From: Acidobacteriota bacterium
GTDB lineage: Bacteria; Acidobacteriota; Vicinamibacteria; Vicinamibacterales; CAVVIG01
Reading direction: 5' to 3'
Assembly: GCA_003223775.1 (NCBI GenBank)
Contig: QHWK01000167.1
Span: 1 to 34,484, forward strand
Length of the DNA stretch: 34,484 nt
A model generated the notes under the pieces. The model did not search any database, was not told the origin of the DNA, and saw only the letters and a list, made by a program, of their open reading frames with translations. Of the stretch, positions 1-15,571 are shown in pieces. Each line of letters opens with the position of its first letter. Positions within the stretch are counted from its first letter, which is position 1. Made by a program: the position numbers and the translations under genes.

Positions 1-589
1 TGAACTCGGGGAACGGAGGAAACTCCGCGTTCGCGTGCTCGAGATCGACCAGGTCGCGGTCGATCGCGAGAACGGCCGACGTCTCCGCGGCGTTCGCATG
101 CAGGCCGTTCTTCAGGCCCGAGAACTCGGCGACCTCGTCCGCGGTGAGCCCGTCCCAGTAGTTGATGGGAAACGCCTGGACGCCCTTCGGCATCCGGTCG
201 GCGGCGTCGGCGCAGGCGTATGCGATCGCGTACGTGTTGTCGTAGTGGCCGTTCAGGAAGATGATCCGCCGGAACCCTGACGCCGCGAATGACGCGCAGA
301 GATCGGCGATGAGCGCCATGAACGTCGGAATCCGGATGTGCACGAGCCCGGTGAAGCCGACGTGGGGATAGGACAGGGCGTAGCTGATCGGCGGCGCCAC
401 CACGGCGCCAATCTGCGGCGCGACACGGCGCGCGACTTCCTGCGGGATGAGGACGTCGGTGGCCAGCGGTCCGTGCGGGCCGTGCTGCTCGGTCGCGCCG
501 GTGGGAACGATGACCGTGTGATGCGACTCGAGGAACGCTTCGACTTCACGATTGGTCATCTCGCCGAGGAAGACGGTGGAACGTTTCAT
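1..589 (-). CDS. creatininase-fold amidohydrolase (creatinine amidohydrolase / ArfB-like family); 3' end lies beyond the left edge of the window
   Basis: Absent from the ORF track because it is open-ended. My translation from ATG 589..587 reads MKRSTVFLGEMTNREVEAFLESHHTVIVPTGATEQHGPHGPLATDVLIPQEVARRV...RRIIFLNGHYDNTYAIAYA... The (T/S)EQHGPH...TD and NGHxxN motifs are typical of the creatininase fold. There is no stop before position 1. Confidence 0.75.
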   Translation of the reverse strand, partial: MKRSTVFLGEMTNREVEAFLESHHTVIVPTGATEQHGPHGPLATDVLIPQEVARRVAPQIGAVVAPPISYALSYPHVGFTGLVHIRIPTFMALIADLCASFAASGFRRIIFLNGHYDNTYAIAYACADAADRMPKGVQAFPINYWDGLTADEVAEFSGLKNGLHANAAETSAVLAIDRDLVDLEHANAEFPPFPEF

Positions 590-692: not shown

Positions 693-1652
693 TTAGACGG
701 GCTGCTGTCCCGCCAGGAACCGGTCGACTCGGCCTGCCAGGTTCTTCAAGTACGCGGCATCTCCACCCTCGACTTCCGTCGTGAAATAACCGCGATACCC
801 GACCTCGTCGAACGCGCGGCGCACGTCGAGCCAGTCGATGTCGCCCTCGCCGATGTTGGTCCAGGCGAAGCGGCCGTTGATCCGATCGAGGTGAAAATCC
901 TTGAGGTGCACCTTCGCGATGCGGGTCCCCAGCGATCGAATCCAGTCCTGCGGGTAGCCGGAGAAGACGACGTTGCCGACGTCGAAATATGCCTTCAGCC
1001 ATGGCGAGTCGAGCTCGTCGACGTAACGGACGAACTCGAGCGGGCTCAGCAGAAACTTGTTCCACACCTCCTCGACGGCGACGATCACCTTCAGCTCTTT
1101 CGCCAGCGGCAGCAGCCGCTCTCGAATGACCTGCTGCGACCTCGTCCACGCGTCGCGGTACGAGGTGGTGGCGTCGACGACGGCGGGGACGAGCAGCACC
1201 GTGTCGGCGCCCCACAGCGCCGCGTTGCGCAGCGAGGTTTCCATGCCGGCCACGCTGCTGCTCACGGCAGTACGGTCGCTGCTCGACAGCGGGAATCGCC
1301 AGTGGTCGGCGTTCATCACGGAGTGAATCCGCAGCCCGGCCTTGGTGGCGGCGTCGCGGATTTCCGCCGCCTCGTCTCCGCGCGCGATCGTCTGCATTTC
1401 GATCGCGTCGAAGCCGTCGTCCCGCGCCGCCTTGAACCGCGCCGCGTAGGGGAGATCCTTCGGCAGCATCGAAATCAGGACGGCTTTGCGCGCGGCTGCC
1501 GACGGGACGGTCTGAAGGCCGTCCGCGACTCGTCGGCTGCGCTCCGCTGCGGCGGGACGGTCTGAAGACCGTCCTCTGGCGATGCTTCTGTTGAGCCCGT
1601 TCCACAGCGGGAGGGTCGAGAGCGACTGGAGAAATGCGCGGCGATCCATCAC
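693..1652 (-). CDS. xylose-isomerase-like TIM-barrel protein (sugar phosphate isomerase/epimerase family) with twin-arginine leader
   Basis: Track ORF of 319 aa. Leader MMDRRAFLQSLSTLPLW, then GFDAIEM...GLRIHSV...LWGADTVLLVP...VIVAVEEVWNKFL...YFDVGNV...KVHLKDF...GEGDIDW...GYRGYFTTEVEGG, the pattern of AP_endonuc_2 / TIM-barrel family members. The GTG/ATG start (1652/1649) overlaps the stop of the upstream GMC gene. Confidence 0.85.
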   Translation of the reverse strand: MMDRRAFLQSLSTLPLWNGLNRSIARGRSSDRPAAAERSRRVADGLQTVPSAAARKAVLISMLPKDLPYAARFKAARDDGFDAIEMQTIARGDEAAEIRDAATKAGLRIHSVMNADHWRFPLSSSDRTAVSSSVAGMETSLRNAALWGADTVLLVPAVVDATTSYRDAWTRSQQVIRERLLPLAKELKVIVAVEEVWNKFLLSPLEFVRYVDELDSPWLKAYFDVGNVVFSGYPQDWIRSLGTRIAKVHLKDFHLDRINGRFAWTNIGEGDIDWLDVRRAFDEVGYRGYFTTEVEGGDAAYLKNLAGRVDRFLAGQQPV

Positions 1653-3473
1653 ACGTCACCAGCGCGTAGACGATCTTTCAGATAGTCCATCGTGCGCCAC
1701 GCCATCGCCAGAATGGACCAGGTCGTGTTCTGCGTGCCGCCGCAGACGAACGGCGCCGCATCGGCGATGTACACGTTCTTGGCGTCGTGCAGGCGGCAGA
1801 AGCGATCGGTGACCGACGCCCGCGGATCGTCGCCCATGCGCGCGGTGCCGATCTCGTGGATCGACCAGCCGGGCGGCAGCGGCTCGCGCTTGATCTTGAT
1901 GTCCTCCGCGTGCGCGGCGATCAGCATCTCTTCGATTGAGTCGGCCATGTCCTTGGCCATCTTCAGCTCGTTGTCGCGGAATATGTAGTCGAACCGCAGG
2001 ACCGGGATGCCCCACGCGTCCTTCACCAACGGATCGAGCGTGACGCGGTTCTCCTTGCGCGGCAGCACCTCGCCAAAGCCGCCGAAGCCGATGTAGGCGG
2101 GATAGTATTTCCGCACGTTCGACTTGAACGCCTTCCCGTAACCGGTAAGCTCCTCCGCCACGTCCGGGTACTCGTAGCAGCCGCCGCCGCCCTGGAAATG
2201 GTAGCCGCGGATGAAGTCCGGATGCTTGTCGGTGATGTTGCGAAACCGCGGGATGTACGGCGATACCGCGCACCGCGCGCCCATCGTCGAGGGTTGATTC
2301 GGTCCCGATCCGCGCCGGGATGTAGCCGCTGCCCTGAATGCCCATGATGTGCTCGCTCAGGTAGCAGCCGAGGACGCCCGATGAATTGCCGAGGCCGGCC
2401 GGATGCGCGCTCGATCGTGAGTTGAGCAGAATGCGCGTCGTATCGAGCGCGCCTGCGCCGAGGATCACGACCGGCGCCTTGAAGTCCATCACCTCGCGCG
2501 TGTTGGCGTCGATGACGCGCACGCCGCTCGCGCGGTTCGACGGCTCGCCGACGAGCACTTCGGAGACGATCGAGTACGGCCGTACCGTCATGTGGCCGCT
2601 GTCGCGCGCCGGATAGATCAGCGACGCCGGCGAGTGGAACGCCGCCTGGATGTCGCAGCCGCGCCCGCACCGGCCGCGCCCGGCGCAGCGCGCCCGGTAC
2701 TTGTTGTTCAGGACGCCGTCGGTGGTGACGCCGGCGCGGCCTGGAATGTAGTGGCGCCCCATGGGCGCGATCGCGCGTTTGAACGCCACCTCGACGCAAT
2801 TGAGCTTCGACGGCCGCTGGAACACGCCATCGGGCACCTGCATCAGCCCTTCGGTGGTCCCGGAACATCCGAGCAATGTGTCGACCTTGTCGTAGTACGG
2901 CTTCACGTCATCGTACGAGATCGGCCAGTCGACGTCGAAGCCGTCGCGGCTCGCGGCGTTGAACTGGAGCGGCCCGTAGCGCAGCGCGCCACGCCCCCAG
3001 AAGTTCGTTTTGCCGCCGAGGACGCGCGCGCGCACCCACGAGTACGGCGTGCCCGTGGTCGGGTTCTGGCGCTCGTCCACCACCCAGTTGCGGGTGAACC
3101 GGTTCGCTGCGTACGACATCACCTTCTGGTGTTTCGCGAGCGCCGGATTGGAGCCGTACGGGCGATCCAGAAAGCTATACTCGGCGACGGCGATCGGGCG
3201 CTCGCCGGGCGGCAGCCGGTGCCGCCGCATCGACGCGTAGGGCCACTCCATCGTCTTGTACTCGGTGCGGACGTCGATCATCCGGCCGGCTTCGAGCAGC
3301 AGCACCTTGACACCGGCCATCGCAAGCTGAAACCCCGCCATGCCGCCCGCCGCTCCGCTGCCAACGACGATGACGTCCCAGCGATCGCTGCCGGGCGTAA
3401 TCGAGGCGGCGAGCCGCTGCGACTCCTCGAGCGCGCGTGTCAGGTTGACGTCGAGAGTGGGGTCGGCTTGCAT
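1649..3473 (-). pseudogene. GMC-family FAD-dependent oxidoreductase, interrupted by one frameshift (or an assembly error)
   Basis: Track ORFs 1656..3473 and 1649..2284 carry the two halves of one protein. The first has DVIVVGSGAAGGMAGFQLAMAGVKVLLLEAG (FAD Rossmann fold) and runs to ...GTESTLDDGR. The second continues YIPRFRNITDKHPDFIRGYHFQGG...GTARMGDDPRASVTDRFCRLHDAKNVYIADAAPF (GMC C-terminal domain). The frame changes between about 2255 and 2282. The true stop is TGA at 1649..1651. Confidence 0.8.
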
Positions 3474-3487
3474 CGGGCGGCCTCTCT

Positions 3488-3553
3488 GAGATTGCAGATT
3501 GCTATTTCAGATTGCAGATTGAATTTCAGATTGAATCTGAATCTGAAGTCTGA
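3488..3553. repeat. A/T-rich heptamer array: 5 direct (C/G)AGATTG copies followed by 3 copies in the complementary orientation
   Basis: GAGATTG starts at 3488. CAGATTG starts at 3495, 3508, 3515 and 3527. AATCTGA starts at 3534, ATCTGA at 3541 and AGTCTGA at 3547. TCAGATTGAATCTGA (3526..3540) is a perfect palindrome around a single G. Only 23 of the 66 positions are G or C. Confidence 0.9.
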
Positions 3554-3571
3554 AACATGAAATCCGAGATC

Positions 3572-4204
3572 TCATGGCAGATGTTTTTGCCCGCAGTACT
3601 GACAGTCCTTGCCGTCGACGGTCTGGCACCCGACGAACTCTTTGATGAACACATTGCCCTTGTAGCGCAACTCCTGGTGAATGCCGATGTTCGACGTGTA
3701 GTAGGCGTAGACGGTGGCCTGCTTGGCCATCACGAAGAACGTCTCGAGCGGCGTCTGTGGCGCGCGCTCGTTGCGGCTGATGGTCTGGAGGATCGCGTCG
3801 ACCTGACCGGCGCCGAGCCGGCTGAACGGCGTACGGAAGCGCGACATGGCTTCGGCGTCGAGCGCCGCGAGGCCGCCGAACCATTCCAGCGTCAGCTGAC
3901 GGTCGCTTTCGCTCAACAACAGGTCGATGTAATCGACCACGCGCGCCTGCTTCGCGCCAGGAGACCGGTCGTCGGTCGGAATGATCGCGTCCACGAGAAC
4001 CTCGAGGGTCGCGAACTGCGTCGGCGAGAGCACCTTGAGCTGCGGCGCGGCATTCGTCTCCTGGATGCGAACGAACGCGAGCATCCCTTGGTCGGACAGC
4101 CACGGCAGCGCCGCCACCGTGCCGATGCCGGCGCCGATGGCCTTGAGCGCCGCCCTCCTGCTGAGGTGTGAGGGTTCGGACCCGGCGGCTTTTTTCATGG
4201 CCAC
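3572..4204 (-). CDS. gluconate 2-dehydrogenase subunit 3 ('gamma', TAT hitch-hiker) family protein
   Basis: Track ORF of 210 aa. Twin-arginine leader SHLSRRAALKAIGAGIG, then LSPTQFATLEVLVDAIIPTDDRSPGAKQARVVDYIDLLL, typical of this family. It sits directly upstream of the GMC flavoprotein. Confidence 0.85.
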   Translation of the reverse strand: MAMKKAAGSEPSHLSRRAALKAIGAGIGTVAALPWLSDQGMLAFVRIQETNAAPQLKVLSPTQFATLEVLVDAIIPTDDRSPGAKQARVVDYIDLLLSESDRQLTLEWFGGLAALDAEAMSRFRTPFSRLGAGQVDAILQTISRNERAPQTPLETFFVMAKQATVYAYYTSNIGIHQELRYKGNVFIKEFVGCQTVDGKDCQYCGQKHLP

Positions 4205-4349
4205 ATCATGCGCCGAGGTATGGGCGCAATCAACTTTGAGAGCATGAGGTTCACGTTCGTGTCACCGGCGCGCGGGCGACGCCGACCGGGCTGTTGCCGA
4301 AGGTCCCGATCGGAGTTGAAACGCGTTGATGTCGAGCCACGTGTTGTGC

Positions 4350-5157
4350 TCACGCGAGCGCCTGCTTCGCGTAGGCGAAGCACTTCGCCACTTCCTCGAC
4401 CGGCGTGCCCCGCCCGCGATACTCGTACTCGATGTCGGCCGGAATCGGCCACCGCTCGCGCTTCAGCAGCTGCAGCACCTCGCGAATCGGCGTGTCGCCC
4501 CGGCCCCACGGCAGGTTGTCGCCCTGGTTCTTCTTCCGTCATCACGGCGGCGAAGCTGTCGGGGGTGGCGAGCTCGTTCGGGTCGCTGACGTTCGAGTGG
4601 CCGTGCATCCCGACGGTGATGTTGTGCTTGTCCGCGATCGGTGCCAGGCGCCTCGCGACGTCTAGCGTCGTCGACGCCGTCACGACATCGGTGCCGAGCG
4701 CCCGAGCGATTTCGAACCCGCGGTCGAGCTCGGCGTCGGTGAAGCTCGAGTTCATGTTGTAACAGTAGGCGTGAATCGTGATGCCGGCGGCGTCGAACTT
4801 CCTGCGGACGTTCCTGAAGTGATCGAGCGGGGTCTCGAGCCGCCACGTGCGGAGATCCTCGCGCGCCTTCACCGCCTCGGGCGACGGCGGCGCCCCACGC
4901 TGGCCGCGGCCCGCCGCGAACTGCGGCTCGAGATGCTCCCCGAGCAGTTCGCACTCACTGAGGCCGCTGTCGGTCAGCGCCTTGATGACCACGTCCACGG
5001 CGTCGGACGCGCCGGCCGGCCGCGGCATATCGCGGAAGCTGTAGGTCTGCGCTCCGAGCCGCACCCCGGCGACTTTCGAATCGATCGGCGCCTCGAGGAA
5101 TCGCGGCAACGCCACGGCGGCAAGAGTGATTGTTCCGAATTCGCGTCTTGTGATCAT
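4350..5157 (-). pseudogene. xylose-isomerase-like TIM-barrel protein with twin-arginine leader, core removed by an out-of-frame internal deletion
   Basis: The N-terminal part lies in the frame of track ORF 4195..5937: MITRREFGTITLAAVALP...GAQTYSFRD...ITVGMHGHSNVSDPNELATPDSFAAVM. At about 4536..4545 the sense jumps to another frame. My translation there reads [62 protein letters not shown], with the stop at 4350..4352. The strands that relatives carry between these two points are missing. Confidence 0.7.
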
Positions 5158-5195
5158 CAGCCCTCGCTCGGTGACAAAAGCCTGTGAAGACATCC

Positions 5196-6911
5196 TTATT
5201 GGTACAGCGCGAACGAATACAGCGTGTCGCCGGCCGCCACGAGAATCTGCTGGCGCCCGTCGACCATGTAGGTCTCCGGCGCGTTGGTCACCTCGCCGAT
5301 CCGCGTATGCCAGAGCGGCTTGCCGTTCGCCGGGTCGAACGCAATGAAATTCCCGGACAGATCGCCGCCGAACAGCAGCTTGCCGGCGGTCGTCAGCAAC
5401 CCCGGCGCGCCGCCGCGGGTCCCCGGCGTACGGAACTTGTGCTTCCAGACGGTCGCGCCCGTCTGATAGTCGATGGCGCTGATGTAGTGGCCCATCGCCG
5501 CGACGGTGACTTCGTCCTTTCCACCGAGGCCCATCGCCCCGCGCGGATCGGTTTCGGTGAGGTAATACATGGCGTAGGTCTCCTCGGTCGGCACGTACAG
5601 CAGGCCGGTATCCGGGTTGTAGGCGGTCGGCGGCCAGTTCGTCGCGCCGCCGTTCGCGGACGAGACGAGCGAGCCGCCGACGTGATGATCCTTGGCGGGA
5701 TCGCGCACCGGCTGCCCTTTCGCGTTCAGCGACTTTGCCCAGTTCACGGTGTCGGAAAATGTGCTGGTCACCAGGTGCTCGCCAGTCCGTCGGTCGAGCG
5801 TGAAGTAGTAGCCGTTGCGGCTCGCCGTCAGCACCATCTTCCGCGGCCCGCCGCCGCGGAAGCCGCCGTCCACGAGCACCGGCGTCTGCGCGGAATCCCA
5901 GTCGTGCGTGTCGTGAGGCGAGGTCTGGTAGTACCACACCATCTTGCCGGTATCGACGTTCACCGCCACGATCGCGCAGGTGAAGAGATTGTCCAGCCCT
6001 TCGCCCCGCGGTTTCGACATGTAGGCGGGCGTCGGATTACCGGTGCCGAAAATGTAGAGATGGGACTCGGGGTCGTAGACGCCGGGCAGCCACGGGTGGC
6101 CGCCCCCGTGCCGGGCCGCGTCGAGGTCCTTCCACGTCTCCAGCCCCGCGTCGCCGGGGTTCATCGGCACGGTGGAGAAGCGCCACTGGTCCGCGCCCGT
6201 TTCCGGATCGAACGACATCAGGAACCCCGGCGCGTCGAGATCGTTCCCCGTGCCGACGATGATGTGATTGCCGACCGTCATCGGCGCCGACGTCATGAAG
6301 TACTGCTGGCTGAAGGGTACCGCCTCCTTGTGCCACCGCTCTCTGCCCGTCCGCGCGTCGAGCGACACGAAGTAATCGTCGGGTGTGACGAAGTACAGAT
6401 AGTTCCCCCACATCGCGACGCCGCGGTTCCCGATGTGCGTGCCCCCCCTTGTCTTCCAGAAGTAATGCCAGATCTCGCTGCCGTCGCGCGCGTCGACCGC
6501 CCAGACGTTGTCGGGCGTCGTCACGTAGAGCACGCCGTTCACCGACAGGATCGCGCCCTTGACCGTCGTCGCGCCGCCGCCGCCGACGTCGCCGGTGCCC
6601 TCGCCGCCGATAATGGTCGGCGGCGGTCCGCCGGGACCGGCTCGTCCGCCGTCAGGGCCGTTGGACAGTTTCGCCGCAAACGCGAGCGACAGCTGCCTCA
6701 CGTTCGACTGGTTGACTTGCGTCAGGGCGCTGAAGCGACGGCCCGTGTAGTCGCCGGAGTACGACGGCCACGAGTCGGCGAGCGGCTTCAGGAGATCCGC
6801 CGGATTGAGGCCCGTGGACGCTTGCCCGACGACGAGCGCCCCCATCACGAGGAACGCAGCGCCCGCAAAGGCTGCAAAAAGAAACACACTCTTCGTCCTG
6901 ATCATCGTCAT
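5196..6911 (-). CDS. PQQ-dependent (quinoprotein) dehydrogenase, beta-propeller, with signal peptide
   Basis: Track ORF 5196..7058. The likely start is MTMIRTKSVFLFAAFAGAAFLV at 6911. Propeller motifs recur: AVDARDGSEIWHY, SLDARTGRERWHK, SFDPETGADQWRF, AVNVDTGKMVWYYQTSPHDTHDWDS, AIDYQTGATVWKH, AFDPANGKPLWHT. Confidence 0.85.
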   Translation of the reverse strand: MTMIRTKSVFLFAAFAGAAFLVMGALVVGQASTGLNPADLLKPLADSWPSYSGDYTGRRFSALTQVNQSNVRQLSLAFAAKLSNGPDGGRAGPGGPPPTIIGGEGTGDVGGGGATTVKGAILSVNGVLYVTTPDNVWAVDARDGSEIWHYFWKTRGGTHIGNRGVAMWGNYLYFVTPDDYFVSLDARTGRERWHKEAVPFSQQYFMTSAPMTVGNHIIVGTGNDLDAPGFLMSFDPETGADQWRFSTVPMNPGDAGLETWKDLDAARHGGGHPWLPGVYDPESHLYIFGTGNPTPAYMSKPRGEGLDNLFTCAIVAVNVDTGKMVWYYQTSPHDTHDWDSAQTPVLVDGGFRGGGPRKMVLTASRNGYYFTLDRRTGEHLVTSTFSDTVNWAKSLNAKGQPVRDPAKDHHVGGSLVSSANGGATNWPPTAYNPDTGLLYVPTEETYAMYYLTETDPRGAMGLGGKDEVTVAAMGHYISAIDYQTGATVWKHKFRTPGTRGGAPGLLTTAGKLLFGGDLSGNFIAFDPANGKPLWHTRIGEVTNAPETYMVDGRQQILVAAGDTLYSFALYQ

Positions 6912-7000
6912 TTCACTGTCACCAGAAACGCGGTCACGTTGTGGATGTCCGCGTCGGCCATGTTCGCACCGATGGCGGAAACGCGCGGCGAACCAGACCG
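6908..7000 (-). pseudogene. possible C-terminal relic of a class I c-type cytochrome (no CxxCH left)
   Basis: The frame of track ORF 6908..7429 ends ...SGSPRVSAIGANMADADIHNVTAFLVTVK*. This resembles the C-terminal 'G..M(P)xF...L(S)DxDIxNVxAYL' end of class I cytochromes c. Its TGA overlaps the PQQ gene ATG (ATGA at 6908..6911). Only 193 nt separate the PQQ gene from the upstream gene, which is too short for a complete cytochrome. Confidence 0.3.
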
Positions 7001-7104
7001 TAGTACTGCTACGAGATTGAGCGCCATCGCCATCGCTCGACGTGTCCATAGCCCGCACGAACGCCTGATCTCGCCGGTCGAGCGAGCGGATGGCGCGGTA
7101 CTGG

Positions 7105-10100
7105 TCAGCGCATCACAATTGTCGAGTCGTTCTTCGACGCGCCCGGCGAGACGGTCAGGTACCGGTCGGCGCTGAGCACGATCTGATCGAGTGACACGCC
7201 GTCTTCCCGCACCTGCACGCGAATGGTCTGCGTGCCGGTCGACGCGAAGTAGATCGGAGCGGCGAGGCCGCCGTACGAGTTGTCCGCCCAGCCCCACTCC
7301 GAAAGGCCGGCGCCAGTCGCTTCCTCGATGCTGACGGGCGCAGCGGCCGTCGATCCGATCCGGTTGGTGGGAAGGCCACTGACGTCCACGGAGCCCGAGA
7401 ACTGCACGTAGACCGAGTCGTTGCTCCACAAGTTTCTGGCAGCCTTCCCGCGCATCCAGAGGTGGTAGCCGACGCCGGCTTCAGCCGCGAACTTCAACTC
7501 GAAGTAGTTCTGCGGCGAAGCCAGCGGCGCCGCGAGCTTCGCCGCTCCCGCATCCGGATTCGCCACGAGATGGCCGCCCGCAGCCGTCGGATCGGCGACC
7601 AGCGACCAGGTGCCCTTCACCGCCGCGTCCGCCGTGTAGAGCACCACAGTCCGGGATGTTCCGCCTGTTCGTTCGAGAATCGTCGTGTCGTTTCTGGCCG
7701 CGCCTGGCGCGGCGGCCAGGTATGTCGCGCCGCCGAGCACGATCTGGTCGATCGACAGGCCGTCTTCGCGCACCTGCACGCGGATCGTCTGCGTTCCGGT
7801 CGTCTCGAAGTAGATCGGGCCCGCAAACCCGCCGTAGGCGTCGTCCGCCCATCCCCACCCTGAGAGGCCGGCGTTGCTGGCCTCCTCGATAGAGAGCGTC
7901 GTGCTCATCGCTGAACCGATCCGATGGATCGGCGCGCCAGTCACGTCCACCGACCCGGAGAACTGCACGTAGACCGAATCGTTGCCCCAGTAGTTGTTTT
8001 CGGCCTTGCCGCGCATCCACAGGTGATACGGGATGCCGGCGTCTGCCCGGAAGGTCAGCTCGAAGTAGTTCGCCGGCGACGCGAGCGCCGCCGGAACCTT
8101 CGCCGCCGACGCGTTGGGATTCGCGATGCGGCGGCCGCCGGCGGCGGTCGAATCGTCCACGAGCGACCAGGTGCCTTTGATCACCGTGGCGTCAGCCGCG
8201 TAGAGAACCCGGTCGCGGCCAGGGGTCGATGCCGGCAATCGGATTTCAAGGCTGAACGTTTTATCTGCGGCATTGGTCGGATCGTTCGGATCGTCGGCGT
8301 GCACGGTGACGGATCCGGTCTCTACGGCCGTCGGCGTACCGAACAACGTCGCGCTCGATGGATCGAACAGAATGCCGGCATCTTTACTGTCGCCACCGGG
8401 TTGCCGCCGCGTAACGCGATGCCGGTCATCGCGGTGAGCGTGGCGATGTCGGCACCGAGATCGAGGCCGTCGGTCGACGGGTACTTGCTCGCGAACCCCG
8501 GCAGCAGACGATAGTCGCCACCGGCATGGTCGACGAAGCCGGCGAGCCATTCGACCACCGTCGGGAAATAGTCGCAAGCGGGATACTTCGATGCGACGCC
8601 GCCGGCGAGAATGTTCGCGCAGACGTAGCCGTCGGGCGCATACGTCACGATCGCCGGCAGTCCCGGCGAAGAGTTCGACCCGTTAATCCCGTACAAGCTG
8701 TGCGGCGACATGTTGTTCGCGTACACGAATGTCATCGTCGGCGCTCCGTAGAAGGCGACGATCGTCGAATCGGTCGTGAACACGGTGTTGTGATCGATCG
8801 TCACGGCCTCGGGACCGTCACCGACCTGAAACACCTTCCCGCCGGATCCCCAGGTGGCGCTGGTGAGGTCGTCGAAGAGGTTGTTCCGCACGACGATGTC
8901 GTTGGTGCGCAGGCTGGTTGCGACGTTGTCCGTGCCCAGGATGTTCACGCCGCCGGCCGTGTGGCGGACGATATTGTGCCGGAACGTGACGTGCTGCACG
9001 ACCACCCATGGCGCAGTGCCGCCCTGGTTGCGCGGCGTGAGAACAATCGGGTAGCCGGGCTGATCGGCCATCCAGAGGTTCTCGAATACGTTGCCTTCGA
9101 CCAGGACGTCCTGAGCGTTTTTGAGCTCGAAGATGTTCTTCACCTGCCACTTGGTGGCGGTCCCCGGCTTGCCGGCCGCGCCTGCTGCGCCGGTATCCGT
9201 GAAGAACGGGTTCGGCGTCGTCCAGAACATGGTCGGGCCATTCGACGTGCGGCCGTACACCACGTACTCCTGCGAGCCCGCCACGGGCGTCCACGAGATG
9301 GTCACGGCCCCGTCGGCGACGAGGGTCGCCGTCCCTACAGCCGACGCGACCGACGTCGCGGTGCGATCCTGGTTACTGAGCTTGCGTGCGGCCACCTGGT
9401 AGAAGTATGTGCCGGCGGGTAGTGCACCGGCCGACGGTGTCGCGGCCGCGGTGACGTTCGTCGGCGCCGCGACGATCGGGTCGCGCCACGCGAGCTGCTT
9501 GCTGAGATGGTTGGAGCGGAAGACGACGTGCGTCGTGACCAGGTTCGGAATCGGCGGATCGGAGCCGCCGAGCAGAAAGTTCTGCGTCGCGGCCTCCAGA
9601 AAATTGTTCTCGATCAGGTAGTTGCCCGGGCCGTTGAAGCCGCTGATGGCCTGCGACTCCTGGTTGATGGCCTTGCAGTCGGACACCCACGAGTTCATGA
9701 CGGTGGTGTCGCGGCTGTGCAGCGCGATGCCGCGCTTCTGTCCGAGCTCGGGGTCGCCGTGGACGTACAGGCGATCGAGAATGAAGCCGTACGGCACTTG
9801 TGAGAGCTGCGTCTGAGTCGAATCGCCGGCGCCGATGGAGATGATGTCGCCAGCGCCACTCTCGTTGGCCTGGAACTCCAGCAACATCAGCTTGTAATGG
9901 TTCGCACCGGCGGCCGTCTGCAGCGCGGCCAGGACATTCGGCGACCTGATCTTCGGGAGGCGCGCCGCGTAGGCGCGCGTGATGCGCACGCCGGCCGGCG
10001 GCAACACCGTGGCGGGCGCGGCCGATCGGATCGTGATGTAGTCGTTAACCGTGCCCTTGTTCGGCAGCACGAAGTTGCCGATGTAGGTGGCATTCGGTTC

Positions 10101-10250
10101 GAGCGTAATCACGTCACCAGGCTGCGCTTGATTGAGCGCGGCCTGGAAATCGCCGCCGGCCGGGACGACGATTGTTGCGGCTCGCGCCGGGGATGCGGCA
10201 AGGACGCAGACGCAGATCGCCGATAGCCACACGGATATCCAAAACCGCAT
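7105..10250 (-). pseudogene. secreted right-handed beta-helix protein (paralog A) with Fn3-like insert, one partial Ig-like module and two CBM-like beta-sandwich modules; one frame break
   Basis: Track ORF 8322..10250 starts with signal peptide MRFWISVWLSAICVCVLAASPARA, then ATIVVPAGGDFQAALNQAQPGDVITLEP... Sense is lost after ...TGIALRGGNPV at about 8394. It resumes in the frame of ORF 7105..8577 at QPGGDSKDAGILFDPSSATLFGTP... and runs to STIVMR*. By eye, roughly three quarters of the first ~620 residues are identical to 16320..19988. Confidence 0.75.
7108..8211 (-). repeat. tandem duplication of a ~180-aa CBM-like module inside paralog A (7108..7647 and 7648..8211)
   Basis: Both copies share VLY(A/T)ADA.V.KGTWSLV.D.TAAGG...NYFEL.F.A.AG..YHLWMRGKA.N.W.NDSVYVQFSGSVDV.G.P..RIGS...SIEEA..AGLS.WGWAD..YGG.A.PIYF...GTQTIRVQVREDG.S.DQIVL. 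The DNA also aligns clearly by eye. Confidence 0.85.
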
Positions 10251-10545
10251 GTGAATCCTCTGGAACGCTTTCAGTTGTCGAAGGCGAGTTCCCTGAGCAC
10301 GCGGAGCTGATTTACAGTCAGTTGTGGATCAGACGAACGCCGTCACGACGTCGGATCCAGCATCACCTGCTCTCGCCAGCAACCTTGCCCGCGCGTTCAC
10401 ACACGCCGCCCTCGGTGTTTCTGCGTGGCCGCCAGCGAAGTGCAGGAGCGTCGTGCCTCCGGCTCGTTACTCTCTCTTGTGTGTGGGCAACATACGCCCT
10501 CTGAGAGTCGGCTTCAAGGCCAAACGACGTATCGATGAGCCGTGA

Positions 10546-10605
10546 TCATGGCTCGATCTTCTGATTCACGCGGAAGAGATTCGCAGGATCGTAGGTCGCC
10601 TTCAC
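10546..10605 (-). pseudogene. 20-codon relic of the C-terminus of a BBE-type FAD-linked oxidase
   Basis: My translation reads VKATYDPANLFRVNQKIEP*, with the stop at 10546..10548. It matches the conserved terminal '(I/V)Kx.YDPxNxFxxNQNIxP' of berberine-bridge-enzyme-like oxidases. An in-frame TAG sits at 10615..10617, so only the tail survives. Confidence 0.4.
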
Positions 10606-10627
10606 TATCGTGTTCTAACGAGCAGGC

Positions 10628-11956
10628 TCAGAGGCGTACCAAGTCGCCGATCCGGATCGGACGCTTTTCTTCGATGCTCTTCCGCGCGGCGATGCCCACC
10701 AGGCATGACATGGCGCCGGCGCGCGAGTCGGGGATGCGCATGTACTCGGGCACCTCGATGGTGCCGAACATCAGATCGCGCAGCCGATCGTCGCCGCCGC
10801 CATGCTCGCCTTGGGCCTTCGGCACGTCGATGATGCGCCGCTGGCCGAAGGACGTGGTCAGGTGGATGTCCGCCTCGTCCTGAACCGCCCAGGGCTGCGC
10901 CTGGTAGTCGCGCACCTCGAGGCGTCCACGCTCGCCGTTGAACGCCACGCGATAGCCTTCAAAGGGCATGAAGGCATTGAGCGAGTACGTCATCGTGACG
11001 TCGTTGGAGTATTTCACCAGCGCCGTCATCGTGTCGTAGATGTCCACGTCTTCCCGGAAGACACACCCGTCGCGATGGTAGCCGTCGGTGTCCTCGCAGC
11101 CCGCATACAGCTTCATTCGCGTCGTGTCGGGCGTCATGTCGTAGAAGAAGCGGCACTGTGACGTGTGGGGACAGGCGCGGCAATGCGTCGAGCGGAACGC
11201 CCCGTTCCGGCCGTAGCAGCCCAGTCTGCCGTCGGCGACGACCGACACCGGGTCGGCGCCGAGCCACCAGTTGATGAGGTCGAAGTGGTGCGTCGCCTTG
11301 TGGACCCAGAGGCTGCCGCTGCGCGACTTGAGGCGGTGCCAGCGCCGGAAGTAGTCGGCGCCGTGAGAGACGTCGAGATACCAGTTGAAATCGACCGAAA
11401 TCACGCGGCCGATCTCGCCGCTGAGCAGCAGCTCCTTGATCTTCTGGTGCTTCGGCGGATAGCGCAGGTTGAACGTCACGACGATCTTGCGATGGTTCCG
11501 CTTTTCCGCGTCCAGCACCGACTGGCACTGCGTCTCGTCGATCACCATGGGCTTTTCGGTAATCACGTCGATGCCGCGATCGAGCGCGTTCACGATGTAG
11601 CCGCTGTGGAAGGCGTCGACGGTCGTGACGATGACCACGTCAGGCTTGACGCGGTCGCACATCTCGTCGAAGCTCGTGAACGTGGGGCAGTCGACGCCCA
11701 TGATCGCCTTGGCCGCGCCGACGCGCTTCGGATTGATGTCGCACAACCCCGCGAACTCGACGACATCGCCGTAGCGTTTCACGAGATCGCCGCCCCACAT
11801 GAAGCAGGCGCGCTCTCCGGTCCCGACGACCGCATACCGGCGCCGGACGGGAGCCGCCGGCGCCGCCGCGGCGCCGAGGGCGAAGAGCGGCGTGGCGGCG
11901 GCGATCTGTCCGGCCTGCTTCACGAACTCGCGACGCGTGATCGACTTTTCGCGCAT
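10628..11956 (-). CDS. Gfo/Idh/MocA-family oxidoreductase with twin-arginine leader
   Basis: Track ORF of 442 aa. Leader MREKSITRREFVKQAGQIAAATPLFALGAAAA, then YAVVGTGERA...DVVIVTTVDAFHSGYIVNALDRGIDVITEKPM (NAD-binding Rossmann fold with EKP motif). GGGAG lies 7 nt upstream of the ATG, and the gap to the upstream gene is 11 nt. Confidence 0.9.
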   Translation of the reverse strand: MREKSITRREFVKQAGQIAAATPLFALGAAAAPAAPVRRRYAVVGTGERACFMWGGDLVKRYGDVVEFAGLCDINPKRVGAAKAIMGVDCPTFTSFDEMCDRVKPDVVIVTTVDAFHSGYIVNALDRGIDVITEKPMVIDETQCQSVLDAEKRNHRKIVVTFNLRYPPKHQKIKELLLSGEIGRVISVDFNWYLDVSHGADYFRRWHRLKSRSGSLWVHKATHHFDLINWWLGADPVSVVADGRLGCYGRNGAFRSTHCRACPHTSQCRFFYDMTPDTTRMKLYAGCEDTDGYHRDGCVFREDVDIYDTMTALVKYSNDVTMTYSLNAFMPFEGYRVAFNGERGRLEVRDYQAQPWAVQDEADIHLTTSFGQRRIIDVPKAQGEHGGGDDRLRDLMFGTIEVPEYMRIPDSRAGAMSCLVGIAARKSIEEKRPIRIGDLVRL

Positions 11957-11967
11957 GAACCGGCTCC

Positions 11968-13767
11968 CTATGACCCGTCGCGTTTTTTCAGCAGCTGAAG
12001 AATCTGTTCCGGCGTCAGCTTCGCGGCCTGCGTGACGAGGCCCTCGATGGCGAACCGGTCGCCCGCGTTGTGGACGAGGAAACTGCCCTTCGCCATGGCC
12101 GCTGCGGTCCGCAAATCGCCCGCGCGGCGAAGGCCGGGAATGTAGAGGCGATCGAGAAACGCCTCATCGTTCGAGAGGTCGAAGCGCCCCACGTCGAGAA
12201 TGGCGCGGGTCACCGGCACGACGGCCGCGGCCAGCAGACCGGCGAGGGCCGCATCGCCGTCGGCCACGAGAATCGCGTTCGGCTGGTCGGACAGCGCGGT
12301 CACCAGATCGGCGACCCGCTGGCTCGCCGCGGTGCGGTTATAGGTGTCGAACATCGAAATGGCCGCCGCCGCGTCCGCGTCGAACGACGTGAAGCTGACG
12401 CGATGCACGGCGAGCCCCGCGCGTGCCACCGCCTTCTCGACCTCGGCGTCCTCGGTCGCCAGCACGATCACAGGCTTGGACGAGGTCCGCGCCGCGGCCG
12501 TCTGCTGCCGCTCGAAGCCCAACGCGTGCAGCAGCGCGCGGCGCGCCGCCTGCGCGTCCGCGCCGGCGAGCTGGCGCCTGGCTGCCGAAATCCAGTTCTC
12601 CGTCAACTCGGCGACACTCACCACGCCATCCGGACGCGGCCGGTTCGCGAACACCATCAGCTCCGGCAGTGGGTCGACACGGAACTCCTGCTCCGTCACC
12701 TTGACGTCCGCCCGCGCGCCCTTGAGCCAGCGGGCCATCCACGCGTACACCGCTTCACGGCTCTCGCGGTTGTAATTGTGATCGGCGTTCACGCGCACGG
12801 CGTGCACGCGGTCCCTCGCGCCGAAGAGATCGTAGAACCGCTGCATTTCCGGGTATTCGAGCTCCAGCGTCTCGTTGGTCCAATCACCGGTGGCCGAGAC
12901 CATCAGGAGCGGGCGCGGCGCGAACAGCGCCGAGATCTCGACGTTGTCGGTGTCGAGCCGGAGGCCGGGGAGGTTCTCGCACAGGCAGCCACCCTGCATG
13001 TGCAGCGAGATCATGTTCACCGGCGCGGACGCCGCGATGCGTGCGTCGACCGCCGCGAGCAGGAAGGTCTGCGTGCCGCCACCGGAAGCGCCCGTCGCGC
13101 CGATGCGATCGCGCGCGACCATCGGGAGCGTCTCGAGAAAATCGACCGAACGGATGCTGTTCCACAGTTGCAGGCCCGCGAGGTTCAGTCCCCACAGGTT
13201 CTCACGCCTGCCGCCGAACTCACGATCGTGATACGTGTGACTGGGAGTGTGCGGGTACCACCGGCTGTCGTTGTACCCGATCATGTCGTAGGTGAAGACG
13301 ACGAAGCCCTGGCGTGCGAGGTTGATCGCACGACCGGGGACCGACGCAACCGCGCTGTTCTCGAGCCGCCCGTAGTTCCAATGGCCATGGGCCGACACGA
13401 TGGCGGGGAACGGCCCGCTGCCGAGAGGCTTGTAGAGATTCCCCGTGACCAGGAACCCGGGAAGGCTTTCGAAGTACACCTTCGAGACCGTGTAGTCGTC
13501 GTGCGTCCGCTCGTCGAACACGACGGGCTTCAGCGGTGTGCGCTCCGGCATCGGGACCAGGCCGGCCGATGCGAGGATATGCTCGCGGAGCCACGCCGCG
13601 CGCGTCTGCCATTCCTCGAGCGACTTGGGATGGCGGACGACGAAGCGATCCTCGAGCGTACGGTAGCGGTGCGTCCGCGCCGCGGGAGGCTGCGGCCGCG
13701 AGGAAACTGACGCCGCGCCCAGCGACAGCACGAGCGTAAACGCGGCAAGCGGCCACAGTCGGCGCAT
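11968..13767 (-). CDS. alpha/beta hydrolase, acetyl-xylan-esterase / dienelactone-hydrolase-like, with ~200-aa C-terminal extension
   Basis: Track ORF 11968..13875. The likely start is MRRLWPLAAFTLVLSLGAASVS (signal peptide) at 13767. Contains PAIVSAHGHWNYG and the nucleophile-elbow-like IGATGASGGG, plus ...NADHNYN. Confidence 0.8.
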   Translation of the reverse strand: MRRLWPLAAFTLVLSLGAASVSSRPQPPAARTHRYRTLEDRFVVRHPKSLEEWQTRAAWLREHILASAGLVPMPERTPLKPVVFDERTHDDYTVSKVYFESLPGFLVTGNLYKPLGSGPFPAIVSAHGHWNYGRLENSAVASVPGRAINLARQGFVVFTYDMIGYNDSRWYPHTPSHTYHDREFGGRRENLWGLNLAGLQLWNSIRSVDFLETLPMVARDRIGATGASGGGTQTFLLAAVDARIAASAPVNMISLHMQGGCLCENLPGLRLDTDNVEISALFAPRPLLMVSATGDWTNETLELEYPEMQRFYDLFGARDRVHAVRVNADHNYNRESREAVYAWMARWLKGARADVKVTEQEFRVDPLPELMVFANRPRPDGVVSVAELTENWISAARRQLAGADAQAARRALLHALGFERQQTAAARTSSKPVIVLATEDAEVEKAVARAGLAVHRVSFTSFDADAAAAISMFDTYNRTAASQRVADLVTALSDQPNAILVADGDAALAGLLAAAVVPVTRAILDVGRFDLSNDEAFLDRLYIPGLRRAGDLRTAAAMAKGSFLVHNAGDRFAIEGLVTQAAKLTPEQILQLLKKRDGS

Positions 13768-13942
13768 CAGGGTACCTCGCGGATGTATGAGCGTGTCGCG
13801 AAGATATATCACGAACGAATACGCCGCTCGCAATCGTAGAGACGATACAGCTCGACCATAACCAAGTTTTTTCACAGGCTCTTCAGCCGAGACTCAGAGG
13901 CACGCAGCCGTCCTGCTGCGATCGCGGTTCGACGAGCGCAAG

Positions 13943-15571
13943 TCACATCGCCAGGAATATCGCAGTTGCGCCGACGAGGACGATCACTATGAGCCATGCG
14001 GCCGCGAACCCGCTGAGATCCGCGCGAAAGGCTGCCAGCCCACCGGCGCGCCGCGGGTGCAGCAGGTGGACCAGGAGCAGCGGACGTTGGACATCGTCAT
14101 CACTTGACGTCTCCAGCCGACCGAACAACGACGCCATCGCGTTGGCCGGCTCGGGGGCGGTCGCCAGACTGACGATCACCAGCGAAGCAATCCCGACGAG
14201 GAGGGCCGCGAGAAACACGTTGGGGTCCCAGTAATCGAGCCGCTGGCCCGTGAGACGGTAAAGCGCGAAGTTCGTCGTCAGCGCCCCGAGCAGGCTCGCG
14301 AGGGCTCCCCACCGGTTCGCGCGCCGCCAGACAACGCCGCCAACGACGCTGACGCCGACAAACGTGGCCAACGTTTCGGTCAGCAGGAACGTATACAGCA
14401 CGCGCTCGACCAGGAAGAGCGCATACACGACACCAATCATGGTCACGGCCAGGCCGCTGATCCGCCCGACCCATAAGTAATGATGGTCCGGCCGGTTCGG
14501 CACCAGCCGTCGTCGATAGAGTCCTTCGGTGAACAGCGCGCCGCTGTCGACCAGGAAGGCAGAGCACGTCGACATGTTCGCGGCCAGCACCGACGCGATC
14601 AGCAACCCGAGGGCTCCCGGAAACAGGAGCTGTCGACAGGCGAAGCCGAACGCATTCTCCGGGTCCTGGAGCATCGCCGTGTCGCCGTGGCCCTGCGCAA
14701 TCATCGCGCCCACGATCAAGCCGACGAGCGCCCACCCCACGGTGCAGATGCGCTTGACGAAGTTGCCGTACAACATGCCGACCCGGCACGTGCGCTCGTT
14801 GCGCCCCGTTCCCACCGCCGCGAGCTGCTGCGGCTGCGCCATGATGCCGACGAGACCGTTGACGGTCAACATGATGATCACCCACGGTCCGATCCCCGAG
14901 GGCGTCGCGAGCGAGAAGCGGAACGGCTCCAGCGATGCCTTCATCCCATCGAGCCCGCCGACCACGTTCCAGCCGAGCGGAACGAGCATGAACGAGAGGA
15001 CGATGATGAGCACGCCCTGAAAGAGATCGGTCCAGGCGGCGGCGATCAGTCCGCCCACGAAGCTGTAGAGCATGAACATCACCGTCATGGCGACGACGAT
15101 CTCGTCGACGCCGACGGTACCGCCGGTCGCCTGGCTGATCACCTTGCCGGCGCCTTTCAACATGCTGCTGGTGTTGATGACGAAGAAGCAGAGCGCAAAC
15201 ACGATGTAGATCGCGCCCATCCACGGCCCGTAGCGGTCTTCGGTGAACTCCGCCATCGTCGTCCGGCGGATCCGGCGGAAGACCGGCGCCATGATCCAGT
15301 AGAAGGGCGTGATGAACAGGTTTTTCCACTGGAACCAGATGGCGGAGGCGCCGGCGCTGTAGACCGCCCCGGCCAGCGCCACGGGCATCTCCGCGTGCGT
15401 GCCGACGCCAAAGCTCTGGGCGATCATCAACCACGGACCGAATCGCCGCCCACCGAGAAAGTACTCGCCGCTGTGGCGCACGCGAAAGCCGACGATGAGG
15501 CCGATCGCCGTGACGATGACGAGATACCCAATGAGGACGGCCCAGTCGAGCGCGGTGATGTCCATCCTCAC
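13943..15571 (-). CDS. sodium:solute symporter (SSF) family transporter
   Basis: Track ORF of 542 aa, multi-pass hydrophobic. The N-terminus MDITALDWAVLIGYLVIVTAIGLIVGFRVRHSGEYFLGGRRFGPWLM is typical of SSF proteins. The GTG at 15571 overlaps the nagA stop (GTGA). An ATG at 15565 with GGAG 5 nt upstream is an equally good start. Confidence 0.9.
   Translation of the reverse strand: MRMDITALDWAVLIGYLVIVTAIGLIVGFRVRHSGEYFLGGRRFGPWLMIAQSFGVGTHAEMPVALAGAVYSAGASAIWFQWKNLFITPFYWIMAPVFRRIRRTTMAEFTEDRYGPWMGAIYIVFALCFFVINTSSMLKGAGKVISQATGGTVGVDEIVVAMTVMFMLYSFVGGLIAAAWTDLFQGVLIIVLSFMLVPLGWNVVGGLDGMKASLEPFRFSLATPSGIGPWVIIMLTVNGLVGIMAQPQQLAAVGTGRNERTCRVGMLYGNFVKRICTVGWALVGLIVGAMIAQGHGDTAMLQDPENAFGFACRQLLFPGALGLLIASVLAANMSTCSAFLVDSGALFTEGLYRRRLVPNRPDHHYLWVGRISGLAVTMIGVVYALFLVERVLYTFLLTETLATFVGVSVVGGVVWRRANRWGALASLLGALTTNFALYRLTGQRLDYWDPNVFLAALLVGIASLVIVSLATAPEPANAMASLFGRLETSSDDDVQRPLLLVHLLHPRRAGGLAAFRADLSGFAAAWLIVIVLVGATAIFLAM

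Follow-up and report, generated by a model that had tools for sequence, protein, structure and literature searches.

The window analysed here is a stretch of 34,484 nucleotides, positions 1 to 34,484 of contig QHWK01000167.1 from a bacterium of the Acidobacteriota (Vicinamibacterales). At its left end, the minus strand contains genes that encode, in the order of reading, a gamma-like dehydrogenase subunit with a twin-arginine (Tat) leader, a flavoprotein of the GMC family, a xylose-isomerase-like TIM-barrel protein with its own Tat leader, which we named TIM1, and a creatininase-fold hydrolase. An initial annotation made from the sequence alone had described these four genes, and their coordinates, order and domains were confirmed, with Pfam profile searches giving Gluconate_2-dh3, GMC, PF01261 and Creatininase, respectively. 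The spacer of 98 nt between the first two genes, the start of a leaderless GMC protein at 3473 and the gap of 103 nt in front of the creatininase-fold gene also agree with the sequence. The GMC gene, however, which had been taken as intact, is broken by a 7-nt duplication. The features of this region are the following.

1..589, minus strand: first 196 codons of a gene for a creatininase-fold hydrolase, truncated where the contig stops (PF02633, 179 bits)
693..1652, minus strand: TIM1, xylose-isomerase-like TIM barrel with a Tat leader, intact (PF01261, 120 bits)
1649..2269, minus strand, in a different frame: C-terminal part of GMC, residues ~400-605 of intact homologs (PF05199 GMC_oxred_C, 71.6 bits)
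2265..2278: exact 7-nt tandem duplication (ACCGCGC twice on the plus strand, GCGCGGT twice on the coding strand), with a frameshift at GMC codon ~402
2271..3473, minus strand: N-terminal part of GMC, residues 1-401 (Pfam GMC_oxred_N and FAD_binding_2; 91% identity to homolog P0001)
3474..3571, minus strand: gamma-GMC spacer, AT-rich, with CAGATT repeats followed by AATCTG repeats (a palindromic array)
3572..4204, minus strand: gamma (hitch-hiker) subunit, intact (PF13618 Gluconate_2-dh3, 91.5 bits against a cutoff of 23.4)

The start codon of the GMC gene is the ATG at 3473 (MQADPTLDV), and its product lacks a leader, neither an RR pair nor a hydrophobic stretch being present at the N-terminus. 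The FAD Rossmann motif begins at residue 33, with GxGxxG at residues 38-43. Homology in this frame ends at residue ~401, window position 2271, and the remainder continues in 2269..1649, where residues 400-605 of P0001 matched the contig with 93% identity in frame -2 (tblastn). At the junction the window reads GGGC-GCGCGGT-GCGCGGT-ATCG; three related loci (L001, L002 and L005 of the survey described below) contain a single heptamer, and intact homologs run TLDDGRAVSPYIPRFRN uninterrupted across the site. The shifted frame is open to 1656 and gives an open reading frame (ORF) of 605 residues, whose length is near normal but whose last 200 residues are Arg-rich nonsense. The break is therefore disguised, because the out-of-frame ORF happens to remain open in GC-rich DNA. 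The domain lost is the whole of GMC_oxred_C, with the invariant His537 and Asn580 columns of alignment A1. These columns align with a His and an Asn in the C-terminal domain of BcGDH, the FAD-glucose dehydrogenase of Burkholderia cepacia (subunits gamma, alpha and beta); in GMC enzymes such a pair is catalytic. Unless assembly has created the duplication artificially, the GMC copy of this contig would, judged from its reading frame, be unable to yield an active enzyme.

The GMC protein contains a Cys-x5-Cys-x3-Cys motif (CAGRGRCGRGC) that is invariant in the 22 homologs of A1 and aligns with the segment CCGNNNCMPIC of BcGDH. It corresponds to Cys212, Cys218 and Cys222 of that enzyme, which bind a surface 3Fe-4S cluster carrying electrons from FAD to the cytochrome (PMC6719666), and it is a predicted 3Fe-4S site here as well. 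The same motif is found in gamma-linked GMC proteins of four other genera, and not in one Rhizobium GMC protein lacking a gamma partner. At least 7,800 database relatives of the GMC protein were detected at E <= 1e-20. The best 120 are 77-91% identical, have 602-616 residues (594 in one case) and contain both GMC domains. Several homologs of both subunits have JGI names of the type 'glucoside 3-dehydrogenase (cytochrome c)', catalytic or hitch-hiker subunit.

The twin-arginine motif of the gamma subunit is SRRAALK, and its RR pair is invariant in 74 homologs. Outside the Pfam domain, the protein ends in a Cys-rich tail (FVGC-x7-C-x2-CGQK, 3572..~3650), in which the last two cysteines often form CPHC, and CQYC in the window. 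The three tail cysteines are conserved in 99%, 84% and 84% of the 74 sequences, respectively, and are invariant in alignment A3. This tail is specific to the Vicinamibacterales clade and is not present in the gamma subunits of the other phyla compared. The gamma C-terminus of BcGDH packs beside the Fe-S cluster (PMC6719666); by analogy, the tail could be structural, forming disulfides, or provide a further metal site. Searching the PDB sequences with gamma gave nothing relevant, and its AlphaFold model was poor (pLDDT 61), so that Foldseek returned only noise with it and no match to the gamma subunit of BcGDH.

For the gamma-GMC spacer, folding predicts a long hairpin (dG -30.9 kcal/mol, z -2.06), and the ribosome-binding site of GMC follows immediately after it. 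Its motif is present in 4 copies within the spacer, against 0.43 expected across the whole window. The array is lineage-specific: it is present in L092, a contig nearly identical to the window, and a related motif is found in L013, while the spacers of L001 and L005 are just ~21-52 nt long.

Conservation of the module in related loci

The survey set consisted of 79 loci from GTDB species representatives, nearly all of them metagenome-assembled genomes (MAGs) of Vicinamibacterales or other Acidobacteriota. The loci were searched with small searches in the style of hidden Markov models, combined with a GC-frame coding filter (based on GC3, the G+C content of third codon positions, and requiring GC1 > GC2). 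The gamma gene was found directly upstream of GMC in 66 of the 67 loci with enough sequence. TIM1 is directly downstream of GMC in 13 of the 23 loci of the closest clade, versus 2 of the 44 more distant ones, and it lies within 10 kb in 27 of the 67. The gamma-GMC(-TIM1) synteny recurs across many independent contigs whose flanks differ, and the gene order is therefore beyond chance. Gamma and GMC are the core of the module, and TIM1 is a frequent lineage-specific addition to it. The module is abundant and uncharacterised in Acidobacteriota, and it is non-functional as written in the window. A full-text literature search for this combination of Pfam names found no description of it.

The recurrence of the complete four-gene order, which the initial annotation had put forward for a survey, thus holds for the gamma-GMC pair; TIM1 belongs mostly to the closest clade, and the creatininase-fold gene adjoins TIM1 solely in L001 and L006 (in L007 it is 2 kb away). 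The latter gene, which starts at 589, is a genuine neighbour in the window, as had been noted, but its linkage is limited to the two or three closest contigs and its product has no signal peptide. The fragment of 196 residues scored below the curated cutoffs of TIGR04448 (119 bits versus 235) and of the IolN family NF041098 (91 bits versus 245), IolN being a creatininase-fold diketo-inositol hydrolase, which acts on a keto-cyclitol. The creatininase-fold gene is incidental to the module, a loosely linked neighbour outside the conserved core.

Other genes are associated with the module more regularly. Unbiased clustering of the neighbours within 6 kb gave GFO/IDH/MocA oxidoreductases in 45 of 85 loci (~48-50 of the 79 by search). 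Genes of the DUF1080/PF06439 family ('3-keto-disaccharide hydrolase') are near 26-27 loci (26 of the 79), and other TIM barrels are enriched too, as confirmed with Pfam. All of these are families known from the 3-keto-glycoside pathway. A simple scan of the window for promoters and terminators gave no signal above that of shuffled sequences, and the operon boundaries therefore rest on spacing and overlap alone.

Variants of the core were also observed. In L046, L048, L049, L053-L055, L057, L058 and L065, which are Luteitalea-like or related loci, gamma is followed by two tandem GMC genes (~880 and 1,000 bits). In L071, L073, L076 and L083, all from MFD MAGs, every one of the three genes (gamma, GMC and TIM1) is split over several frames, so that broken frames of this family occur in other public assemblies as well; we suspect these to be error-prone long-read assemblies.

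Relation to known dehydrogenases and the electron acceptor

The best full-length solved relatives of the GMC protein are the alpha subunit of BcGDH (E 7e-39) and the fructose dehydrogenase of Gluconobacter (E 3e-31), with identities of ~25-30% as read from the alignment. These enzymes use the same hitch-hiker principle, with a gamma subunit, and their 3Fe-4S ligands align with those found here (PMC6719666). Both differ from the module described here by a neighbouring subunit, a membrane-bound cytochrome c with three haems. Moreover, His105 of BcGDH, the site of the covalent FAD link, aligns with Phe158 of our GMC protein, and Cys213 of its alpha subunit, which forms a disulfide to gamma, aligns with an Ala.

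Closer matches were obtained against plasmid and chromid records, the best of which are 35-38% identical over the full length and belong to clusters of Xanthomonas, Pseudoalteromonas and Hymenobacter; a gamma-GMC pair from Caballeronia is 28% identical. The gene order in Xanthomonas sacchari is TIM - GMC - gamma - DUF1080, with genes for a cytochrome c, a sugar-phosphate isomerase, GFO, a permease and an isomerase on the opposite strand. In Pseudoalteromonas it is GFO - isomerase - MFS - DUF1080 - GMC - gamma - isomerase, and in Hymenobacter the GMC - gamma pair is flanked by TonB receptors and a GH92.

These annotated clusters are laid out as has been described for Caulobacter LacABC, a periplasmic, cytochrome c-dependent lactose/glycoside 3-dehydrogenase (EC 1.1.99.13) whose genes are grouped with those of a DUF1080 protein, a reductase, a transporter and two epimerases (PMC8121099, PMC9007349). 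The module shares with LacABC and glucoside 3-dehydrogenase (G3DH) a leaderless GMC protein, a Gluconate_2-dh3 subunit with a Tat leader and the Cys-x5-Cys-x3-Cys motif. The neighbourhood of TIM-barrel, DUF1080 and GFO/IDH/MocA genes is likewise shared, and a separate small cytochrome c, unlinked or loosely linked, would probably be a further common trait. The two differ in that GMC precedes gamma in LacABC-like clusters, whereas gamma precedes GMC here; in addition, the TIM barrels of those clusters are not orthologous to TIM1 and their gamma subunits lack the three-Cys tail.

The initial annotation had pointed out that the module has no cytochrome c gene, and this is correct. A six-frame search of the 34.5-kb contig gave a single CxxCH motif, located in an unrelated beta-helix protein of 1,222 residues. 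No ORF for a three-haem cytochrome c (~450 residues) was found beside GMC in ~84 loci. Of the 79 loci, 5 have a gene for a monohaem cytochrome c with a signal peptide (PF13442) no further than 10 kb from gamma-GMC; in L028 and L035 the distance is 0.8-1.7 kb. The annotation had further grouped G3DH with complexes of gamma, flavoprotein and cytochrome c subunits, which is imprecise: according to PMC9915066, which cites Miyazaki 2018, G3DH passes its electrons to a monohaem cytochrome c that is a separate protein. Because G3DH uses such a separate cytochrome and the 3Fe-4S motif is kept in our GMC protein, an unlinked acceptor would be ordinary and leave no mechanistic gap. From the sequences, the 'missing' cytochrome is most plausibly a soluble partner whose gene is unlinked, and the TIM gene does not take its place.

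This bears on the proposal that the TIM barrel replaced the cytochrome c subunit, so that a cytochrome-independent, hitch-hiker-exported glycoside oxidase would be physically coupled to a keto-sugar lyase and would use a non-cytochrome acceptor. Such an arrangement would fit the absence of a cytochrome gene with a CxxCH motif from this contig and of multihaem cytochrome c genes next to GMC in the other loci, as well as the TGATG coupling of GMC and TIM1 described below; the clade-specific gamma tail might then be an extra redox or metal site. We consider it improbable, however. The linkage of TIM1 is facultative and confined to one subclade, and the Xanthomonas sacchari cluster holds both a cytochrome c of 98 residues and a TIM barrel. 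The invariant 3Fe-4S motif hands single electrons to a protein partner, which for G3DH is the free monohaem cytochrome c named in PMC9915066; genes for such cytochromes lie near some of the loci and, in Xanthomonas, beside the TIM gene. TIM1, furthermore, was not placed in a known lyase branch by the PDB and Foldseek searches. Lastly, a tie between the Cys-rich tail and the lack of a nearby cytochrome c was ruled out, since L029 and L035 combine the tail with such a gene close by. A more elaborate version seems more doubtful still: by analogy, the tail beside the 3Fe-4S loop might constitute an extra redox or metal centre passing electrons to a non-cytochrome acceptor, with the pair docked to TIM1 as a cytochrome-independent machine that oxidises soil glycans and then cleaves or epimerises the product.

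A large protein of 830-960 residues with five CxxCH motifs was seen near gamma-GMC in four loci (L005 11265-14090, L008 19320-21815, L024 158-2935 and L042 4846-7737). The L005 copy has TPR and weak Cytochrome_C554 matches in Pfam, and the L042 copy begins 143 nt downstream of the GMC gene.

TIM1 and the probable function of the module

The start codon of TIM1 is the ATG at 1649 or, alternatively, the GTG at 1652. As had been annotated, the start region (GTGATG, 1652..1647) overlaps the stop codon of GMC, the TGA at 1651..1649 of its C-terminal frame, so that the two genes are coupled by a TGATG sequence. The MDRRxFLQ motif is invariant in 23 homologs. The linker between this Tat motif and the barrel is highly variable in length, of low complexity and disordered in the model; among the homologs (alignment A2, columns ~20-95), some linkers consist of tandem peptide repeats (GRSLPDIGLWNGLK three times in P0132) and others are plain hydrophobic leaders. 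At least 7,800 significant database matches were obtained for TIM1.

TIM1 had been regarded as kin to the keto-sugar lyases of the Car, Dgp and Lgd systems, and this was not borne out. The nearest PDB sequence is UlaE (profile E 2e-13), which is also the best Foldseek match (E 9e-18, TM 0.7-0.8), followed by D-tagatose/psicose 3-epimerases. The four metal-ligand positions Glu/Asp/His/Glu are invariant and align with those of UlaE; all four are shared with the L-xylulose-5-phosphate 3-epimerases UlaE/SgbU and with the D-tagatose/D-psicose 3-epimerases. TIM1 differs from UlaE/SgbU in having a Tat leader, which would place it in the periplasm, and in being coupled to a dehydrogenase; sugar phosphates are not expected in the periplasm. 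Its scores are below the curated cutoffs of NF009689 (93.5 bits versus 200) and TIGR00542 (59.7 bits versus 272). The remaining matches are uncharacterised isomerases. Enzymes that deglycosylate C-glycosides, and lyases of levoglucosan or keto-glycosides, were absent from its PDB and profile matches and from the Foldseek top 50, although AL1/BT2156 may be outside the PDB.

Secreted 'sugar phosphate isomerase' TIM barrels have been described as 3-keto-glucoside 1,2-lyases (10.1101/2024.03.25.586180). They resemble TIM1 in being xylose-isomerase-like TIM barrels that act after a periplasmic sugar-3-oxidiser, as is proposed for TIM1, with DUF1080 and GFO partners. The oxidant in that system is a Tat-exported GFO/IDH/MocA protein with bound NAD, whereas here it is a GMC/Fe-S dehydrogenase, and TIM1 is likened to these lyases by description. 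In this superfamily, epimerases and 1,2-lyases share their first step, a metal-assisted proton abstraction beside a carbonyl, and the outcome of the TIM1 reaction is therefore not decidable from sequence. Given the TGATG coupling and the shared compartment, we infer that TIM1 acts on the keto product of the dehydrogenase, as a lyase or as an epimerase.

Taken together, we hold with moderate confidence that the module is the Vicinamibacterales version of a periplasmic flavoprotein dehydrogenase of the LacA/G3DH type, joined to a TIM barrel that processes keto-sugars, and that it is inactivated in this contig. The GMC protein would fold in the cytoplasm with FAD and the 3Fe-4S cluster and bind gamma, whose twin-arginine leader would take the pair through the Tat system. 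In the periplasm, the enzyme would act on a sugar or glycoside and oxidise one of its secondary hydroxyls, most likely that at C3. Electrons would pass from FAD via the 3Fe-4S cluster to a separately encoded, soluble monohaem cytochrome c, usually unlinked. TIM1, exported by its own Tat leader, would use its Glu-Asp-His-Glu metal site to abstract a proton beside the new carbonyl, and would then either eliminate the aglycone (1,2-lyase) or epimerise or isomerise the keto-sugar. GFO/IDH/MocA and DUF1080 enzymes might complete the pathway. In the window, the 7-nt duplication would truncate GMC after residue ~401, with loss of the C-terminal domain and its His/Asn positions. The earlier idea of hitch-hiker export with a TIM partner is thus retained on account of the hallmarks of the gamma and GMC sequences, the TGATG coupling and the GFO/DUF1080 neighbours; a known-lyase identity for TIM1 is not.

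Several points weigh against this interpretation. A cytochrome c gene is near just 5 of the 79 loci and absent from this contig, and the acceptor is hence inferred. The C3 regiochemistry and the glycoside substrates are likewise conjectural, and the nearest solved GMC enzymes attack C1 of glucose and C5 of fructose. Export through Tat is predicted from motifs, and as read from the alignment the hydrophobic stretch after the RR pair of TIM1 looks weak in this subclade. TIM1 is closest to ketose 3-epimerases rather than lyases, with an identity of ~20%, and orthology to the TIM barrels of Xanthomonas and Pseudoalteromonas was ruled out, since BLASTP at 1e-3 gave no match between TIM1 and the proteins of these clusters. 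The likeness to LacA and to the Agrobacterium and Halomonas G3DH enzymes was drawn via the GMC proteins of LacABC-like clusters, annotation and description, not from the characterised sequences. Finally, the conserved Cys-rich tail of gamma has no counterpart in the characterised systems and is unexplained.

Some of these points would suit a dehydrogenase with a different substrate or position of attack (such as aldoses, ketoses, polyols, sugar acids or cyclitols, from which 2-keto or 5-keto compounds might arise), with TIM1 acting as a ketose or keto-acid 3-epimerase or isomerase and no glycoside being cleaved. UlaE and the D-tagatose/psicose 3-epimerases are nearest to TIM1 in both sequence and fold, the nearest solved GMC proteins are glucose and fructose dehydrogenases, the adjacent creatininase-fold protein is weakly similar to IolN, and TIM1 is not orthologous to the TIM barrels of LacABC-like clusters. 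We nevertheless regard this as unlikely, though it deserves to be kept in mind. The GMC protein is closer to the GMC proteins of clusters with DUF1080, GFO and TIM genes (35-38%) than to the other gamma-linked GMC protein sampled (28%), DUF1080 and GFO genes are enriched near the clade, and the database names of the homologs favour glucoside 3-dehydrogenase. The identity of TIM1 to the epimerases is low, and 93 bits is far from the cutoff of 200.

An O2-using glycoside 3-oxidase of the CarA/PsG3Ox kind, with a TIM partner cleaving C-C or C-O bonds like CarBC/DgpBC, would also account for the adjacent TIM barrel, and the C-terminal domain of GMC matches pyranose oxidases and PDB entry 7qf8 ('GMC oxidoreductase family protein') with E values of 1e-11 to 1e-12. 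Those matches, however, span just the C-terminal ~140 residues, and the full-length ones are Fe-S dehydrogenase subunits. The GMC protein here has a 3Fe-4S motif and an obligate gamma partner, and CarA-type glycoside 3-oxidases are not known to have either. Since structures of CarB, CarC and DgpB are missing from the TIM1 matches and no gene for a small CarC-like partner is evident, we consider an oxidase of this kind very improbable.

Returning to the LacA/G3DH-type dehydrogenase that we favour, its possible significance lies in the host group. The Vicinamibacterales are Acidobacteriota that abound in soil but have rarely been cultured, and their metagenomes contain the gamma-GMC(-TIM1) module very frequently. 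Should the intact enzyme prove to be a glycoside 3-dehydrogenase with a new keto-sugar branch of TIM barrels, the recently recognised oxidative, non-hydrolytic breakdown of glycosides would extend to a major soil phylum. TIM1 would then represent a new enzyme family, and the dehydrogenase a new flavoprotein of the direct-electron-transfer type, with a possible use in biosensors.

Lesions and other genes of the contig

The JGI metagenomes were scanned for the GMC junction with 0-7 extra bases. The scan gave one contig, L092 (Ga0209474_10001692), which has an unduplicated, intact GMC gene; no second copy of the duplicated allele was found by the scan. L092 is 99.6-99.7% identical to window positions 1713..15427, and over these 13.7 kb the two differ by 33 single-nucleotide polymorphisms (SNPs), no 1-nt indels and five longer indels. 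Relative to L092, the window has the following differences.

2265: +7 nt, GMC frameshift
4538|4539 (junction): -119 nt, TIM2 loses 40 residues and its frame is shifted
7079: +4 nt (CGAG), apparently intergenic, between the ORF limits 7058 and 7105
8379|8380 (junction): -115 nt, splits the beta-helix/He_PIG gene
11894: +3 nt (GGC), in frame

The second of these affects TIM2, another gene for a TIM barrel with a Tat motif, which lies directly upstream of gamma. The deletion takes out KMSKYFKVNLDIGHF...HLKD, that is, the DIGH...HLKD core motifs. TIM2 is intact in L006, L090 and L092, of which L090 is 96.5-99% identical, and its intact ortholog matches PF01261 with 60.5 bits. The beta-helix/He_PIG gene is a single ORF of ~1,100 codons in L092 and two ORFs in the window (8322..10250 and 7105..8577). 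A fourth gene, of the GFO/IDH/MocA family, contains a 4-nt duplication in a region outside the coverage of L092, where it was detected by two-frame tblastn and DNA alignment. At least four genes of the contig are thus frameshifted.

The lesions might be assembly or consensus artefacts, with an intact and functional module in the organism itself, and this is a serious possibility that in our view falls somewhat short of even. All five indels are absent from a 99.65%-identical contig of another metagenome, TIM2 is intact in L090 as well, and no second duplicated allele turned up in the junction scan. Five indels, three of them disruptive, is also a strikingly high number against just 33 SNPs in 13.7 kb. 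On the other side, the usual signature of read-error artefacts is single-base or homopolymer indels, and the comparison with L092 gave none; long-read noise as the cause of the frame breaks was ruled out for this reason. What was found instead are exact tandem duplications (3, 4, 4 and 7 nt) and two clean deletions, one of 115 and the other of 119 nt; changes of these kinds are typical of replication slippage and deletion in vivo. Moreover, three of the four frameshifted genes share one theme (GMC, TIM and GFO), as expected under relaxed selection on a pathway. The locus would thus be either a case of recent gene loss within a strain, affecting a sugar-oxidation pathway, or a warning on assembly quality; in both cases, conclusions about the module must be drawn from intact alleles.

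Compared with L001 and L006, which are ~91% identical, the gamma-GMC-TIM1-creatininase block is inverted relative to TIM2 and the neighbouring PQQ-like gene. A misassembly was ruled out in this case: because L090 and L092 have the gene order of the window, the inversion is a real rearrangement of the lineage.

The other genes identified on the contig are listed below.

4353..5157, minus strand: TIM2, TIM-barrel gene with a Tat motif, inactivated (tblastn of the L006 ortholog and DNA alignment)
5196..7058, minus strand: 'PQQ-like' beta-propeller, a full member of the 'acido-empty-quinoprotein group A' family (NCBIfam TIGR04528; 712 bits, the cutoff being 650)
10628..11956, minus strand: GFO/IDH/MocA oxidoreductase with a Tat leader, intact (Pfam)
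11968..15571: esterase-like gene and then a sodium:solute symporter, beside the GFO gene of 10628..11956 (Pfam)
25962..27069, minus strand: GFO/IDH/MocA gene, frameshifted by a tandem duplication of CGCT (two copies, plus strand 26636..26643) relative to L005 and L083
27134..27970, minus strand: TIM3, xylose-isomerase-like TIM barrel with a Tat motif (KRREFFQ), start approximate, adjoining the broken GFO gene (PF01261, 84.8 bits)

No DUF1080 gene was found on this contig. Three TIM barrels with Tat motifs and two GFO genes are present in total, together with genes for outer-membrane proteins resembling TonB receptors, and by its predicted gene content the contig region is one for glycan or sugar utilisation. 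The PQQ-like beta-propeller gene is linked to TIM2 in L006 too. The beta-helix/He_PIG gene has a paralog at 16320..19988 (1,222 residues), with 82% nucleotide identity over ~1.4 kb.

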